A stretch of 64,000 bases of DNA, from the sequence record ON210139.1. One strand, 5' to 3'. The notes under the pieces were generated by a model. The model had not been told where the DNA came from and made no database searches. It worked only from the letters and a program-made list of their open reading frames with translations. Every line of letters begins with the position of its first letter. Positions within the stretch are counted from its first letter, which is position 1. Shown here one piece after another: positions 3,667-64,000 of this stretch. Source of the DNA: Escherichia phage EC128. The translations under genes and the position numbers were made by a program.

Positions 3667-4476
3667 TTAGAAACGAGATGCGACTTTCGCATATACACTT
3701 ACAATATCTTCTGCACCAGGTGCAGCTTTATCTTCTACAGCTTCAGTGACGAAATTCAGTCCGGCTGCTTCAGTATCAGGAGTATTTATACTCTCAGTAA
3801 TAGTGCTTTCATCTTTATTAGATTTCTTCACCATTTCTACGATTGCACTCAATTTACTTGAGAATGCATCTGAATAATCCATACCTTCGACCAGAGCAGA
3901 GACTTTTTCTTTTTGAGACTCAGTCAGATCTTTAGTACTTTCGCTCAATGCCACTTCACGCTGCACATAATTGATATATGCGTCACGCTTATTGAGTTCT
4001 TCGAACAGACGAGCTGATTCTTCTTTATGTTCTTGCAGCTCTTCTTCCATTTCAGCTACAATATCAACTGATTCTTCTGGAACAACAACGTTGTGTTCAA
4101 CAAAGAGCTCTTTTAATCCACCAAGCATGGATTCAAACAGTTCGGCTTTGATGCCTTTATCAACTGCTAATTTATTTTCAGCGAGCCATTCTTTTGCAAG
4201 ATGGTCAATGAATTTAGAAGCTTGCTCAGCGATTTTCTTCTCAGCTTTTTCTTCGGCTTCTTCTTTATTTTTTTCTACTTCTTCTTCTGCTTTTTCAGCA
4301 ATTTTAGCGATATGAGATTCAGCTAATTTAACGGCGTGCTGCTTGACGGTAGCTTCGAATACAGTGCCGAAAGTTTCTTTTGCTTCCGGAGAAATATTAA
4401 CTGATTCGAAAATACTATCAAGAGCAACGGAAGCATCAATTTTCTGCGCTTCGGCAATCAGTTGTTCTTTAAGCAT
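3667..4476 (-). CDS. 22: Prohead scaffolding core protein gp22
   Basis: 269 aa acidic, coiled-coil-rich ORF between gene 21 and 23; length matches recalled T4 gp22. Confidence 0.9.
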   Translation of the reverse strand: MLKEQLIAEAQKIDASVALDSIFESVNISPEAKETFGTVFEATVKQHAVKLAESHIAKIAEKAEEEVEKNKEEAEEKAEKKIAEQASKFIDHLAKEWLAENKLAVDKGIKAELFESMLGGLKELFVEHNVVVPEESVDIVAEMEEELQEHKEESARLFEELNKRDAYINYVQREVALSESTKDLTESQKEKVSALVEGMDYSDAFSSKLSAIVEMVKKSNKDESTITESINTPDTEAAGLNFVTEAVEDKAAPGAEDIVSVYAKVASRF

Positions 4477-43380: not shown

Positions 43381-43968
43381 ATGGACAATTCATGCGCCAT
43401 GGAATGGCCCAAACCTAGAGATAACAAAATGAGAACATTTTTAACTGGTCCTTATCTATCCCTGATGAATGCTTTTACACACCATTCTGATGCTAGAGTA
43501 GAAGAAATTTGTAAAAACGAATATATCCCGCCATTTGAAGACTTACTTAAACAGTATTGCACACTTCGACTAGACGGTGGACGTCAATCTGGTAAATCAA
43601 TTGCTGTGACTAACTTTGCTGCTAATTGGTTGTATGATGGCGGAACAGTTATTGTTCTTTCTAATACTTCAGCTTACGCTAAAATTTCTGCAAATAACAT
43701 TAAAAAGGAATTTTCGCGTTATTCTAATGATGATATACGTTTTCGTTTATTTACTGATTCTGTACGCAGTTTTATTGGTAATAAAGGAAGCAAGTTCAGA
43801 GGTTTATCGCTTTCGCGAATTTTGTATATAATTGATGAGCCTGTCAAATCTCCTGATATGGATAAGATTTATAGTGTCCATATTGACACTGTACACTGCT
43901 GCTGTAATATTAAATGTTGTATTGGTGGTATTACTCGTCCACAGTTTTTCGTAATCGGAATGCAATGA
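43381..43968 (+). CDS. P-loop NTPase-like protein with C-terminal cysteine cluster
   Basis: Walker A GGRQSGKS and Walker B-like LYIIDE; C-terminal HCCCNIKCC; real start may be the internal Met at 43429. Confidence 0.5.
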   Translation: MDNSCAMEWPKPRDNKMRTFLTGPYLSLMNAFTHHSDARVEEICKNEYIPPFEDLLKQYCTLRLDGGRQSGKSIAVTNFAANWLYDGGTVIVLSNTSAYAKISANNIKKEFSRYSNDDIRFRLFTDSVRSFIGNKGSKFRGLSLSRILYIIDEPVKSPDMDKIYSVHIDTVHCCCNIKCCIGGITRPQFFVIGMQ

Positions 43969-44294
43969 TGACAGACACTCAGCTTTTCGAATATCTTTAT
44001 TTTTCGCCAAAAACTATTAAAAATAAATTGGTGAATCATTTTGAAATTTTGGCAAATAACAACGTCTTGAGCGAATTTTATCCTAAGCAATACAAATTAC
44101 AAAAAGGCGTATTCAAAGGATGTAGAGTTTTATGTACTGCTCCTAATGCACGGCTAATGAATAAAATTCCATATTTTACCATGGAATTTATTGATGGGCC
44201 TTTTAAAGGACTAATCACACAGAGTTTAATGGCATATGATTCTGAGCCATTTTTAATTAAAGAACAATCTTGGATAAATTTATTTTCTAATTGA
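43965..44294 (+). CDS. Hypothetical protein
   Basis: ORF whose ATG overlaps the upstream stop (ATGATGA); track start 43914. Confidence 0.45.
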
Positions 44295-44301
44295 GGTTTA
44301 T

Positions 44302-44664
44302 ATGAAAGCATATCAAATTCTTGAAGGCACACATAAAGGTACTATTTATTTTGAAGATGGTATTCAAGCACGAATTATCGTTTCTAAAACCTTTAAAGAG
44401 GACTCTTTTGTAGACCCAGAAATTTTCTATGGTTTGCATGCCCGTGAAATTGAAATTGAGCAACAGCCTACAGTTAAAATTGAAGGTGGTCAACACCTGA
44501 ACGTTAACGTTCTGCGTCGTGAAACTCTGGAAGATGCAGTTAAGCATCCGGAAAAATATCCGCAGCTGACCATCCGTGTATCCGGTTATGCAGTTCGCTT
44601 TAACTCTCTGACTCCGGAACAGCAGCGCGACGTTATCGCTCGTACCTTTACCGAGAGTTTGTAA
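44302..44664 (+). CDS. Autonomous glycyl-radical cofactor (GrcA/YfiD-like)
   Basis: C-terminus [29 protein letters not shown] matches the glycyl-radical signature of GrcA and pyruvate formate-lyase C-termini. Confidence 0.85.
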
Positions 44665-44885
44665 TGGCAAAGATAATTATTGAAGGTTCTGAAGATGTGC
44701 TAAATGCTTTCGCCGAATGGTTTAGTAATTCAGGCGAACAGCAATTTAACGAAGCATGGAACATGGGTGATATTAATGGAATTTATCCTACTACAGAAAT
44801 TTCTGTTCAGGGATATGGCATTCATGAACCTATTCGTTTAGTTGAATACGATTTATGTACTGGTGAGGAAGTCAAATATGATTGA
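44664..44885 (+). CDS. Hypothetical protein
   Basis: 73 aa ORF with start/stop overlap with neighbours. Confidence 0.5.
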   Translation: MAKIIIEGSEDVLNAFAEWFSNSGEQQFNEAWNMGDINGIYPTTEISVQGYGIHEPIRLVEYDLCTGEEVKYD

Positions 44886-45144
44886 AGATATTAAAGGTTA
44901 TAAGCCACATACTAACGAAAAAATCGGTAAAGTAAATGCTATTAAAGACGCTGAAGTTCGTTTAGGACTTATCTTTGACGCTTTATACGATGAATTCTGG
45001 GAAGCACTAGATAATTGCGAAGACTACGAATTCGCAAAGAATTATGCTGAAAGCCTCGATCAGCTAACTATTGCTAAAACGAAACTCAAAGAAGCTAGTA
45101 TGTGGGCTTGTCGCGCGGTATTCCAACCAGAGGAAAAATATTAA
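44878..45144 (+). CDS. vs.4-like small protein (candidate Acb2 cyclic-oligonucleotide sponge)
   Basis: Fifth ORF counting from denV toward regB, the vs.4 slot in T4; about 88 aa from the ATG after a GAGGAA RBS; assignment by position and size only. Confidence 0.45.
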
Positions 45145-45422
45145 TGGCTCAATTAAGCGCAGGGTTTGGTTATGAGTATTATACTGCCCCTCGTCGTGTA
45201 TCTGTTGCTCCTAAGAAAATTCAAAGTCTTGATGATTTCCAGGAAGTAATTCGTAACGCTTTCCAGGACTATGCGCGTTATCTTAAAGAAGATTCACAGG
45301 ACTGTCTCGAAGAAGATGAAATTGCTTATTATGAGCAGCGTCTTGAACAGCTTAAAAACCTACATGAGGTTCGTGCAGAAGTTACAAAGTCTATGAATAA
45401 ATTGATTAGATTTAAAGAATAA
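45144..45422 (+). CDS. Hypothetical protein (vs.3 position)
   Basis: 92 aa from [13 protein letters not shown]; track ORF starts upstream at 45102. Confidence 0.5.
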
Positions 45423-45424
45423 TT

Positions 45425-45455
45425 GTTTACTTTTCCTCTTGACTGTGGTATAATT
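45425..45455 (+). promoter_or_regulatory. Early promoter for regB
   Basis: -35 GTTTAC, extended -10 TGGTATAAT. Confidence 0.65.
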
Positions 45456-45481
45456 TTTCTATCAGTTAAGAGGAGAATAAC

Positions 45482-45943
45482 ATGACTATCAACACAGAAG
45501 TTTTTATCCGTCGAAATAAGCTCCGTCGTCACTTTGAGTCGGAGTTTCGTCAAATTAACAATGAGATTCGTGAGGCATCAAAAGCAGCAGGAGTCTCATC
45601 GTTTCATCTAAAATATTCTCAACATCTTCTTGATCGTGCAATTCAACGGGAGATTGATGAGACATATGTTTTTGAATTATTCCACAAAATAAAAGACCAT
45701 GTTTTAGAAGTTAATGAATTCCTGAGTATGCCTCCGCGTCCTGACATTGACGAGGATTTTATTGATGGGGTTGAATATCGTCCTGGGCGTTTAGAAATCA
45801 CAGATGGAAATCTTTGGCTTGGATTTACAGTTTGTAAACCTAATGCGAAGTTCAAAGACCCGTCACTTCAATGTAGGATGGCCATTATCAACAGTCGTCG
45901 TTTACCAGGAAAGGCTTCTAAAGCAGTAATTAAAACTCAATGA
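45482..45943 (+). CDS. regB: Endoribonuclease RegB
   Basis: 153 aa ORF, GAGGAG RBS; recognised as T4 RegB by sequence and length. Confidence 0.9.
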   Translation: MTINTEVFIRRNKLRRHFESEFRQINNEIREASKAAGVSSFHLKYSQHLLDRAIQREIDETYVFELFHKIKDHVLEVNEFLSMPPRPDIDEDFIDGVEYRPGRLEITDGNLWLGFTVCKPNAKFKDPSLQCRMAIINSRRLPGKASKAVIKTQ

Positions 45944-45950
45944 GGTAAGC

Positions 45951-46496
45951 ATGAGAAAAGCACTACTCGCTGGTCTATTGGCCATTTCTATGATGGCACA
46001 TAGCTCCGAGCATACTTTCAGTAATGTCCAACTCGATAACATGCGTTACGCGTATCAATTCGGGGAACAATTTTCCAAGGATGGAAAATATAAAACACAT
46101 AAAAATATCCACAAGAGCGGATTAGGTCATATAATGGCTGCTATTTTATGGCAAGAAAGCTCTGCCGGAGTTAATTTAAAATCTAAACCAAAGCATCATG
46201 CCTACGGAATGTTCCAAAACTATTTGCCGACCATGCGAGCAAGAGTTAAGGAACTTGGTTATAATATGACCGATGCTGAAATAAAAAGAATGTTGAATAA
46301 ACGGTCCAATTCAGCTTCCTGGGCGTACATTGAACTTTCTTATTGGTTAAATATACATAAGGGCGATATAAGAAAAGCAATATCCTCTTATAATTCGGGA
46401 TGGAATGTTAAAGCAGGTTCTAAATATGCTTCTGAAGTCCTAGAAAAGGCTAACTACCTTAAAAATAATAAACTGTTGGAAATAGTAAATGACTAA
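45951..46496 (+). CDS. vs.1: Secreted lytic-transglycosylase-like protein
   Basis: 181 aa ORF with N-terminal signal peptide MRKALLAGLLAISMMAHS and a QESS motif reminiscent of SLT-domain catalytic Glu; T4 vs.1 position. Confidence 0.6.
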   Translation: MRKALLAGLLAISMMAHSSEHTFSNVQLDNMRYAYQFGEQFSKDGKYKTHKNIHKSGLGHIMAAILWQESSAGVNLKSKPKHHAYGMFQNYLPTMRARVKELGYNMTDAEIKRMLNKRSNSASWAYIELSYWLNIHKGDIRKAISSYNSGWNVKAGSKYASEVLEKANYLKNNKLLEIVND

Positions 46497-61299: not shown

Positions 61300-61511
61300 T
61301 GCTCGAAGGAACTGATTATATCCATGATTACCGCGGAAGCGCGGTATATGTAGGTGATGAAGTTGTAGTTTATTATGGGTATGGAACTTTGATGACAGCA
61401 AAGGTTATTCAAATTAAAAATAATCGTGCTAAACTTGAAGTTTATTATTCTAATGGTGAAAAGTCTATTTCTAAGTGGAAATATGGCGATTGTATGGTCA
61501 AACTGGGGTAA
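61296..61511 (+). CDS. Hypothetical protein
   Basis: 71 aa ORF. Confidence 0.45.
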   Translation: MMLEGTDYIHDYRGSAVYVGDEVVVYYGYGTLMTAKVIQIKNNRAKLEVYYSNGEKSISKWKYGDCMVKLG

Positions 61512-61513
61512 AT

Positions 61514-61684
61514 ATGATTTACGATATTAATGTAGCAAGAGCTCCGTCAATGGTTACTATTCCTGCTAAAGAACTAGATCGTCTTCATAAAATTGAAGAA
61601 CTTCTTTGGGAAATTGAATCTGATTTGCCATCAGGATTAGAATCCTGGATTGATTATGAAGAACTTAATAAGCTTCGGGGTTAA
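61514..61684 (+). CDS. Hypothetical small protein
   Basis: About 56 aa from MIYDINV after a GGGG RBS; track ORF starts upstream. Confidence 0.35.
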   Translation: MIYDINVARAPSMVTIPAKELDRLHKIEELLWEIESDLPSGLESWIDYEELNKLRG

Positions 61685-61806
61685 ACCTTGGTGGGCGGCT
61701 AGATGGGAAACTGTAGAGCCAGAGCCGGAAGAACCGGTTTACACTGATGAAGAAACAGTATATAATGAACCAACGATAAATGACTTAATTGATATGGAGA
61801 TGGGAC

Positions 61807-62292
61807 ATGATTACAGTAGATAAGTGGTTTAGAATTAATCGTGCTGATACAGGGCTATGTAATTACTGGCCGGAACTTAGTGCAGGTACTGTCTTTAAAG
61901 TTCGTGAACTTGCAAAAGAATGTGAAGATGATATAGAGCCTGACACTGGAATTGTTGAAATTGAACTTTCCGACGGAAAGATTATTAATATCTATGATAA
62001 GCCAATTACATATTGGTGCTTATGGAATACTGAATCAGTCGAAAATGGCGAAATTGAAGAAGTTGTAGAGCGAACTAATCAAGTTGTTCAGAAGCCTAAA
62101 GCCGATTTTCAAGGTGAACGTATTTCATACGCACTAGCTAAATTAGCTGCGCAAGAAAATAACGATGGCTATGAAGGTAACCTGATGCAAGCTGCCGCAG
62201 AGTACATTGAATGGCTTGAAACTCAAATTTCTTTTTCTGACCAAAAGATTCGGCAATATAAGCGATTGAATCAAATGTTTTACAATACTTGA
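61807..62292 (+). CDS. pin: Pin-like protein (candidate Lon protease inhibitor)
   Basis: Start at MITVDKWF gives 161 aa, the recalled T4 Pin length; sits between nrdC and gene 49 as in T4; by position and size only. Confidence 0.5.
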   Translation: MITVDKWFRINRADTGLCNYWPELSAGTVFKVRELAKECEDDIEPDTGIVEIELSDGKIINIYDKPITYWCLWNTESVENGEIEEVVERTNQVVQKPKADFQGERISYALAKLAAQENNDGYEGNLMQAAAEYIEWLETQISFSDQKIRQYKRLNQMFYNT

Positions 62293-62333
62293 AAATAATA
62301 AATACCCTTATCTATTTAAGGTAAGGGTTTATT

Positions 62334-62807
62334 ATGTTATTGACTGGCAAATTATATAAAAAAGAAAAACAGAAATTTTATGATGCACAAAATGGTAAAT
62401 GCTTAATTTGCCAACGAGAACTAAATCCTGACGTTCAAGCTAATCACCTCGACCATGACCATGAATTAAATGGACCAAAAGCAGGAAAGGTACGTGGATT
62501 GCTTTGTAATCTATGCAATGCCGCAGAAGGTCAAATGAAGCATAAATTTAATCGTTCTGGCTTAAAGGGACAGGGTGTTGATTATCTTGAATGGTTAGAA
62601 AATTTACTTACTTACTTAAAATCCGATTACACCCAAAATAATATTCACCCTAACTTCGTTGGAGATAAATCAAAGGAATTTTCTCGTTTAGGAAAAGAGG
62701 AAATGATGGCTGAGATGCTTCAAAGAGGATTTGAATATAATGAATCTGACACCAAAACACAATTAATAGCTTCATTTAAGAAGCAGCTTAGAAAGAGTTT
62801 AAAATGA
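62334..62807 (+). CDS. 49: Endonuclease VII (Holliday junction resolvase)
   Basis: 157 aa ORF with zinc site CLIC...CNLC and HNH-like NHLDHDHELNG; recognised as T4 gp49. Confidence 0.93.
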   Translation: MLLTGKLYKKEKQKFYDAQNGKCLICQRELNPDVQANHLDHDHELNGPKAGKVRGLLCNLCNAAEGQMKHKFNRSGLKGQGVDYLEWLENLLTYLKSDYTQNNIHPNFVGDKSKEFSRLGKEEMMAEMLQRGFEYNESDTKTQLIASFKKQLRKSLK

Positions 62808-63341
62808 CAATTGAAAAAGAAATTGAAGGATTGATTCATAAAACTAATAAAGACCTTTTGAACGAGAATGCTAATAAAGATTCTCGTGTTTTTCCAACTC
62901 AACGGGACCTTATGGCTGGTATTGTGTCTAAACACATTGCCAAAAATATGGTCCCGTCTTTTATTATGAAAGCGCATGAAAGCGGAATTATCCATTTCCA
63001 TGATATTGATTATTCCCCTGCTCTTCCATTTACTAATTGCTGTTTAGTAGATTTAAAAGGAATGCTTGAGAACGGATTTAAGCTCGGTAATGCACAGATT
63101 GAAACTCCTAAATCAATTGGCGTTGCTACTGCAATTATGGCACAAATTACTGCACAGGTTGCTTCCCATCAATATGGCGGAACGACTTTTGCGAATGTAG
63201 ATAAAGTACTTTCTCCTTATGTTAAACGCACCTATGCAAAACATATTGAAGATGCAGAAAAATGGCAAATCGCCGATGCGTTGAATTATGCTCAATCTAA
63301 AACAGAAAAAGACGTATACGATGCATTCCAAGCTTATGAGT
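62804..63341 (+). CDS. nrdD: Anaerobic ribonucleoside-triphosphate reductase NrdD, exon 1 (interrupted by a group I intron)
   Basis: Frame open from MTIEKEIEGL to 63349; proposed 5' splice site after U63341, where exon UAUGAGU can pair with intron GCUCAUG (P1 with terminal U-G). Confidence 0.75.
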
Positions 63342-63545
63342 TAACGTAAGTCAAGCTCATGTAAAATCTGCCTAAAACGGGAAACTCTCACTGAGACAAT
63401 CCGTTGCTAAATCAGCGGTAGCTGTAAATGCCCAACGACTATCCCTGATGAATGTAAGGGAGTAGGGTCAAGCGACCCGAAACGGCAGACAACTCTTAGA
63501 GTTGAAGATATAGTCTGAACTGCATGGCGACATGCAGCTGTTTAT

Positions 63546-63569
63546 CCTCGTATAAATACGAATACGAGG
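63546..63569 (+). promoter_or_regulatory. Late promoter TATAAATA within a hairpin that also contains the I-TevII Shine-Dalgarno
   Basis: CCTCGTAT-aaatacga-ATACGAGG inverted repeat; TATAAATA at 63551-63558; GAGG RBS lies in the 3' arm, 8 nt before the ATG. Confidence 0.55.
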
Positions 63570-63576
63570 TGAAACG

Positions 63577-64000
63577 ATGAAATGGAAATTAAGAAAAAGC
63601 TTAAAAATTGACAATTCTGTAGCATTTACCTATATGGTAAGATTTCCTGATAAGTCTTTTTATATAGGTTTTAAAAAATTCAAAACTATATATGGTAAAG
63701 ATACAAATTGGAAAGAATACAATTCGTCATCTAAGCTTGTTAAAGAAAAGCTTAAAGATTATAAAGCTAAGTGGATAATTCTTCAAGTTTTTGATTCTTA
63801 TGAATCGGCCCTTAAACATGAAGAAATGCTTATTAGGAAACATTTTAATAACGAATTTATTCTTAATAAATCTATAGGTGGATATAAATTTAACAAATAT
63901 CCGGATTCAGAAGAACATAAGCAAAAACTTAGTAATGCCCATAAAGGTAAAATCTTATCTTTAAAACATAAAGATAAGATACGAGAGAAATTGATTGAGC
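63577..64000 (+). CDS. I-TevII: Intron-encoded GIY-YIG homing endonuclease I-TevII (3' end outside window)
   Basis: MKWKLRKSLKIDNSVAFTYMVRFPDKSFYIGF contains the GIY-YIG motif; sits inside the nrdD intron. Confidence 0.8.
   Translation, partial: MKWKLRKSLKIDNSVAFTYMVRFPDKSFYIGFKKFKTIYGKDTNWKEYNSSSKLVKEKLKDYKAKWIILQVFDSYESALKHEEMLIRKHFNNEFILNKSIGGYKFNKYPDSEEHKQKLSNAHKGKILSLKHKDKIREKLIE

Follow-up and report, generated by a model that had tools for sequence, protein, structure and literature searches.

A T4-type group I intron in the nrdD gene of Escherichia phage EC128, and the hairpin and predicted late promoter at the start of its I-TevII endonuclease gene

Results

Gene content and relatives of the locus

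The window, meaning the whole 64,000-nucleotide stretch of Escherichia phage EC128 DNA that was analysed, closes on a region (62800-64000) in which gene 49, nrdD and the homing endonuclease gene I-TevII follow one another, and the parts of nrdD, its intron and I-TevII described below are on the plus strand. When this region was compared by megablast with 50,697 phage records it showed 98.1% DNA identity to phage T4 over 1201 nt; the closest full-length match was vB_EcoM-RPN226, at 98.7%, with T4 and its laboratory variants at 98.1%. The matching records are annotated as gp49 endonuclease VII, nrdD and I-TevII homing endonuclease, and the gene order of T4 (49 / nrdD / I-TevII) is that of the window. 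The T4 record AF158101.6 gives nrdD as a CDS joined from two pieces, and there I-TevII carries the remark "encoded by group 1A intron in nrdD; GIY-YIG family". Differences between T4 and the window number 23 in the 1201 nt, of which six fall within the intron. Because the matches are full-length and of T4 type, and none is identical, this stretch of EC128 is assigned by sequence comparison to a T4-like Tequatrovirus that is here identical to no deposited record. The window stops at codon 141 of the 258 codons of I-TevII, and the 3' third of the intron, together with the 3' splice site, lies beyond base 64000.

In the stretch 61500-64000, which was read directly, two overlapping open reading frames precede I-TevII. 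A 157-aa ORF (62334-62807), recognised by Pfam as recombination endonuclease VII (gene 49), is followed by a 181-aa ORF (62804-63349) with the terminal sequence ...AYELT*, which contains exon 1 of nrdD (sunY; 62804..63341), the gene for the large subunit of anaerobic ribonucleoside-triphosphate reductase. Pfam family PF13597 (NRDD, for the N-terminal portion of the anaerobic ribonucleotide reductase NrdD) matched exon 1 at 1.4e-40, and the T4 annotation agrees with the nrdD identity that had been proposed in an earlier note, made from the sequence alone. The ORF runs past the exon to an in-frame UAA (63347..63349), situated 6-8 nt into the intron in the loop of P1, at which translation of exon 1 on unspliced RNA would end.

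In several deposited genomes (RPN226 and the pSe_SNUABM_01 / vB_EcoM_F1 / SA20RB lineage) nrdD is annotated as two separate CDSs with no intron feature, exon 1 being carried on as far as the stop codon in the intron and exon 2 opening at an internal ATG. A further observation concerns the 3' end of gene 49, where a sequence resembling a T4 middle promoter (GCTT, spacer, TATAAT) was noticed at ~62717-62742, 60-90 nt 5' of the nrdD ATG, the equivalent site in SA20RB being annotated as a middle promoter. On its consensus match, this sequence is a candidate promoter for the read-through transcripts that the I-TevII hairpin described below would control.

Position of the intron

The insertion point was examined independently of the Rfam model, with a query in which the terminal 150 nt of exon 1, from the window, were fused to the initial 150 nt of exon 2 of T4. 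The uninterrupted exon junction was found, in one piece and at ~97% identity, in 621 phage records. Against one of the intronless records, slur07, matching of the window ended 0 nt past 63341, and the 3' end of the T4 intron matched 0 nt of the exon-1 end. With an overlap of 0 nt at both intron ends the boundaries are unambiguous, and this alignment places the 5' splice site exactly at 63341|63342 (...UAUGAGU | UAACGU...). The corresponding 3' boundary in T4 reads ...CACAUUG | AUGAAG, from intron into exon 2. A U at the end of the 5' exon and a G at the end of the T4 intron follow the end rules of group I introns, and the T4 exons, once joined, give a single open NrdD frame of 605 codons.

The exon sequences flanking the insertion site differ between alleles, being GAGU|AUGAAGUGAACACG where the intron is present and GAAU|AUGAAGUAAAUACU where it is absent (63330-63341 of the window compared with 340-380 of a retrieved intronless locus, L007), and the G at 63340 provides one half of a G-C pair in P1. 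The allele differences in exon 2 sit where I-TevII would be expected to act, and would fit either co-conversion or protection against cleavage.

The intron core

The group I intron has its catalytic core (P1-P9) at 63342..63537, wholly upstream of the I-TevII ORF. A search with group I covariance models, suggested in the earlier note, matched Rfam RF00028 (Intron_gpI) at 63306-63537 over the full model (1-253 of 253), with 98.2 bits against a gathering score of 50 and an E value of 5.9e-26. This match, the intronless alleles and the covariation described below all bear out the note's naming of a group I intron. The P1 stem-loop (63335..63361) pairs exon UAUGAGU (63335-63341) with the internal guide GCUCAUG (63355-63361), giving seven pairs with a U.G at both ends (U63335.G63361 and, at the splice site, U63341.G63355). 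This is the helix that the note had drawn at the end of exon 1, terminal U-G included, and the same helix was predicted by RNAalifold (columns 36-43 / 55-62), which added U63342-A63354 to make a helix of 7-8 bp, paired in 7/7 sequences. P1 is invariant across the seven aligned sequences and therefore offers no covariation support. The P1 of the Rfam alignment itself, which sets AGACGUAUA against UAUGAGU-U, contains four non-standard pairs and was rejected as a misalignment, the other P1 being recovered by RNAalifold.

The alignment used for these predictions (MAFFT, RNAalifold; n=7) comprised the window, T4, RPN226 and Manna together with the divergent pSe_SNUABM_01, vB_EcoM_F1 and SA20RB, whose nrdD intron has the insertion site and P1 of the window and a homologous core with compensatory changes. 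Such changes, in which both sides of a pair are altered and the pairing is kept, were found in 12 of the 61 predicted pairs, across two lineages only, and lie in the helices 63367-72/63484-89, 63376-81/63400-05, 63413-16/63421-24, 63442-46/63457-61 and 63465-69/63474-78. This pattern of covariation is consistent with a functional ribozyme, the number of independent events being small because just two lineages were compared. The core differences between T4 and the window (63417, 63497 and 63528) all fall in loops of predicted core hairpins. A pairing proposed by RNAalifold between CGUAU of the exon (63313-63317) and AUACG in the 3' arm of the hairpin upstream of I-TevII was discarded as an artefact, attributed to misalignment by MAFFT of the 5' arm in the second lineage.

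The core ends with P9 (63520..63537), a hairpin of CUGCAUG-GCGA-CAUGCAG with a GNRA loop, which is the last helix of the Rfam model and was predicted by RNAalifold with seven pairs. A simple scan scored this segment as "terminator-like", but it is the P9 helix of the ribozyme and was not retained as a terminator. The equivalent of P9 in SA20RB (2225-2252 of the retrieved locus, L006) is annotated as a rho-independent terminator, and this is likely to be a mis-annotated ribozyme helix.

The I-TevII gene

Codons 1-141 of I-TevII, a homing endonuclease of the GIY-YIG family, occupy 63577..64000, where the ORF runs off the window. The encoded protein is 98.6% identical to T4 I-TevII over the 141 aa. 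The Pfam match to PF19835 (SegE_GIY-YIG) is barely above its cut-off (25.9 bits vs 25), and NUMOD3 scored below its own (19.7 bits vs 20.4). The T4 identity and the GIY-YIG match confirm the endonuclease, and the ATG at 63577, that had been named beforehand.

Searches by tblastn divided the phage I-TevII proteins into two groups, one of 24 records at >=90% identity and one of 44 records at ~57%, and no phage record was identical over the 141 aa. Relative to both T4 and RPN226, two amino acids are changed in the window: A12D (63611), just before the GIY motif, and Y89H (63841), in the catalytic domain. The I-TevII homologue of vB_EcoM_F1 is broken into two ORFs (1744-2313 and 2342-2515), and may be degenerate.

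The hairpin and predicted late promoter upstream of I-TevII

Between P9 and the I-TevII start codon lies an interrupted hairpin (63539..63576) that covers the ribosome-binding site. Its inner stem of 8 bp pairs CCUCGUAU (CCTCGTAT) at 63546-63553 with AUACGAGG (ATACGAGG) at 63562-63569, around an 8-nt loop, AAATACGA (63554-61). Past a 2x2 internal loop, an outer stem of 5 bp (UGUUU, 63539-63543, with AAACG, 63572-63576) carries the pairing up to the base before the AUG. The Shine-Dalgarno sequence, GAGG (63566..63569), is part of the 3' arm, 7 nt before the AUG, and is invariant in 7/7 aligned sequences. Folding of 63538-63600 gave -15.5 kcal/mol, compared with -5.7 +/- 2.1 for shuffled sequences (z -4.57), and none of the 200 shuffles was as stable.

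The octamer TATAAATA (63551..63558), an exact match to the -10 box of T4 late promoters, takes in the final 3 nt of the hairpin's 5' arm and 5 nt of its loop, 18 nt 5' of the I-TevII start; the same box is annotated in SA20RB. Taken alone the octamer is weak evidence, since 21 copies occur on both strands of the A+T-rich 64-kb window against ~10 expected, and the argument for a late promoter is built instead on the placement of the box, its conservation and the published mapping in T4. In T4 late promoters TATAAATA occupies -13 to -6, a geometry that should put the late start near 63564, within the 3' arm, 2 nt before GAGG and past the whole of the 5' arm. An RNA beginning at 63564 was predicted to fold with no stable structure over the Shine-Dalgarno.

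The earlier note had described a hairpin before the ATG with GAGG buried in its 3' arm, and a late promoter towards its loop side, and its readings of hairpin, late promoter, P1 and splice site all proved accurate to the base. It had also placed the late start inside the hairpin, which the geometry upholds, but at ~63560 rather than ~63564. A literature search for recent data on I-TevII transcription starts found nothing relevant.

The only difference from T4 within the hairpin is at 63559, a loop position directly after TATAAATA, where the T of T4 is replaced by C. No match to the exact 24-nt hairpin with C63559 was found in IMG/VR. This base and the two amino acid replacements make up the intron differences from T4 outside the core, and C63559, A12D and Y89H could alter regulation or activity in EC128.

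Conservation in a second lineage

The Tequatrovirus lineage of pSe_SNUABM_01, vB_EcoM_F1 and SA20RB shares 69.5% DNA identity with the window over the 5' part of the intron and 57% protein identity in I-TevII. Upstream of its I-TevII ORF the sequence reads UCAUCUUGUAUAAAUAAGAUUAUCUUAUGAAUACGAGGUGAAACAAUG, in which TATAAATA is kept and the 3' arm containing GAGG is identical. The 5' arm, UCAUCUUGUAU, still pairs, with two G-C pairs changed to G.U and a longer stem, and an 11-nt insertion in the loop folds into a small stem by itself. Initiation six nt beyond TATAAATA would again fall 3' of the 5' arm, and the depositors of SA20RB had annotated its TATAAATA box as a T4 late promoter. Because the stem changes of this lineage are one-sided (G-C to G.U), they amount to conservation, not covariation, and could partly reflect shared ancestry.

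Pairing between the start and the end of the I-TevII ORF

A segment (63569-63594) that takes in the spacer, the I-TevII AUG and the codons next to it, as well as CUGUUUAU (63538-63545), is complementary to the last codons of the ORF, some 770 nt downstream, in both lineages. The ORF-end partner lies outside the window and was taken from the retrieved T4 locus (L001, ~4015-4050) and, for the second lineage, from positions 1729-1762 with 2483-2510 of another (L003). When the 3' end of the T4 intron was appended and the RNA folded, the inner hairpin was kept, CUGUUUAU paired with AUAAACGG, and GUGAAACGAUGA (63569-80) paired with ACAUUGUUUCAU at the end of the ORF. In the second lineage the equivalent helix has 19 bp, and when the remainder of the intron was considered as partner for the ORF-start segment, the 3' end of the ORF ranked near the top in both lineages. 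The local outer stem, UGUUU/AAACG, competes with this long-range helix, which probably corresponds to P9.1, the ORF forming a loop outside it, and which published sunY structures may already include. That full-length RNA has in this helix a second lock, able to bury the AUG whether or not the local hairpin forms, is an unlikely proposition. If true, it could couple translation of the endonuclease to folding of the intron.

Discussion

This analysis established the identity of a nrdD intron locus in phage EC128, its match to the group I intron model, the insertion point, covariation in the core, and the stability and conservation of the hairpin that precedes I-TevII. Very probably the best explanation of the locus is a T4-type nrdD group I intron in which I-TevII is governed by a switch composed of a late promoter and a hairpin over the ribosome-binding site, and nothing found here contradicts it. 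The same arrangement is seen in the T4 nrdD intron (AF158101.6, complement 43535-46385), which occupies the same host gene, is inserted after ...GCUUAUGAGU, and has P1, core, hairpin, TATAAATA, GAGG and AUG as in the window.

The regulation of these genes in T4 has been described in some detail. The promoters of the three T4 intron endonucleases were located by primer extension (PMC2988022, ref. 48, which is Gott et al. 1988, Genes Dev 2:1791), and expression of the intron ORFs is confined to late infection and depends on gp55 (Gott et al. 1988, as cited in PMC2988022). For all three endonucleases the Shine-Dalgarno is sequestered in a very stable RNA structure (PMC2988022), with the late promoter sited so that late transcripts cannot form that structure, and with "similar arrangements... 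for I-TevII" (PMC2988022, sections 9 and 12); the I-TevII hairpin is drawn in Figure 5 of the same paper, and PMC2790892 and PMC3014915 concur with the mechanism. Read-through transcription from upstream (PMC2988022) and guanosine-dependent self-splicing (cited in PMC2988022) are also published for T4. The logic set out in the earlier note, that I-TevII is silent on the early pre-mRNA and translated from late transcripts that initiate within the hairpin, thus matches a mechanism that was already known, having been described for T4 in 1988, and the EC128 case is correct but ordinary.

Applied to EC128, the sequence of events would be as follows. Early and middle transcripts would read through nrdD, and on these RNAs the 13-bp interrupted hairpin (63539-63576) would base-pair GAGG together with the spacer as far as the nucleotide preceding the AUG, blocking the loading of ribosomes, such that no endonuclease would be made and the intron would fold and splice undisturbed. 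Ribosomes arriving from exon 1 would be halted by the UAA at 63347. Late in infection, RNA polymerase modified by gp55 would initiate from the TATAAATA box inside the hairpin, at about 63564, and because the resulting RNA would lack the 5' arm, its Shine-Dalgarno would be free and I-TevII would be translated. In this account splicing, the late transcript and late-only expression are taken from the T4 literature, and the exact late start in EC128 is inferred from promoter geometry.

Other readings of the hairpin have to be weighed against this switch. It might serve the intron RNA chiefly as structure or as a terminator, for example as a peripheral helix, or as an intrinsic terminator following the ribozyme core, its overlap with the Shine-Dalgarno and TATAAATA being incidental, and both the terminator-like score of the neighbouring P9 helix (63520-63537), annotated as a rho-independent terminator in SA20RB, and the ability of CUGUUUAU, just 5' of the hairpin, to pair alternatively with AUAAACGG after the ORF in T4 would fit such a role. 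The stem itself (63546-63569), however, is followed by no U-run and was not listed by the terminator scan. No variation was seen in GAGG, the AUG or the 7-nt spacer between them, the Shine-Dalgarno is still buried in the lineage with the remodelled loop, and published expression data link the structure to translation (PMC2988022, PMC3014915), all of which leave a purely structural role very unlikely. A coincidence of hairpin, TATAAATA and GAGG in A+T-rich DNA is less probable again and can be discounted almost entirely: chance would supply about ten such octamers per 64 kb over both strands, but the stability of the hairpin was equalled by 0/200 shuffles, the box lies 18 nt 5' of a confirmed gene start, and the arrangement recurs in the lineage at 57% identity and is published for T4 (PMC2988022).

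A different proposal accepts the hairpin as a secondary element and makes transcriptional autorepression, of the kind demonstrated for I-TevI, the main control, exerted through I-TevII bound to a homing-site-like operator that overlaps the late promoter. For I-TevII, a putative operator at a position overlapping its promoter has been reported, although it was not experimentally demonstrated (PMC2988022, section 10, Figure 4B). In the window the best 20-nt match within 63530-63590 to the homing site (-10 to +10, centred on the insertion site) is at 63554-63573. This match is 13/20 in the window and 14/20 in T4, C63559 accounting for the lower value, but 146 of 500 shuffled sequences reached >=13 and 35 of 500 reached >=14, so the match alone is not above chance. 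An operator would, moreover, be complementary to the hairpin mechanism and not an alternative to it, and there is very little reason to regard autorepression as the principal control at this locus.

The switch proposed for I-TevII has close counterparts in T4. The td intron with I-TevI is a different intron, in a different host gene and with a different endonuclease, but like the window it combines a GIY-YIG endonuclease with a Shine-Dalgarno held in a hairpin on early and middle RNA and a late RNA that cannot form the stem. For I-TevI, the hairpin was deleted, the link to splicing efficiency was tested directly and autorepression was shown, whereas for I-TevII these points have been inferred (PMC2988022, PMC3014915); the hairpin that was tested directly by mutation is the one of I-TevI and not that of I-TevII (Gibb and Edgell 2010, as described in PMC3014915). 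Hairpins that sequester the ribosome-binding site are also found at the T4 genes e, soc and 49, where the long early RNA is untranslatable and the late RNA starts inside or after the stem (PMC3014915), but unlike I-TevII these are not genes of mobile elements and have no ribozyme context. The window contains one of these as well. Directly before the gene 49 ATG at 62334, a hairpin at 62295-62335 covers the AAGG ribosome-binding site (-16.4 kcal/mol, z -2.95); it is the known translational hairpin of that gene (PMC3014915), and repeats the logic of the I-TevII hairpin 1.2 kb upstream of it.

Persistence of the switch in a lineage whose I-TevII shares 57% protein identity offers a small measure of comparative support, which was not found stated in the literature examined. 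The locus as a whole is a textbook case of a selfish endonuclease gene, carried in a self-splicing intron, that is kept silent until late in infection, thereby sparing the splicing of an essential host gene.
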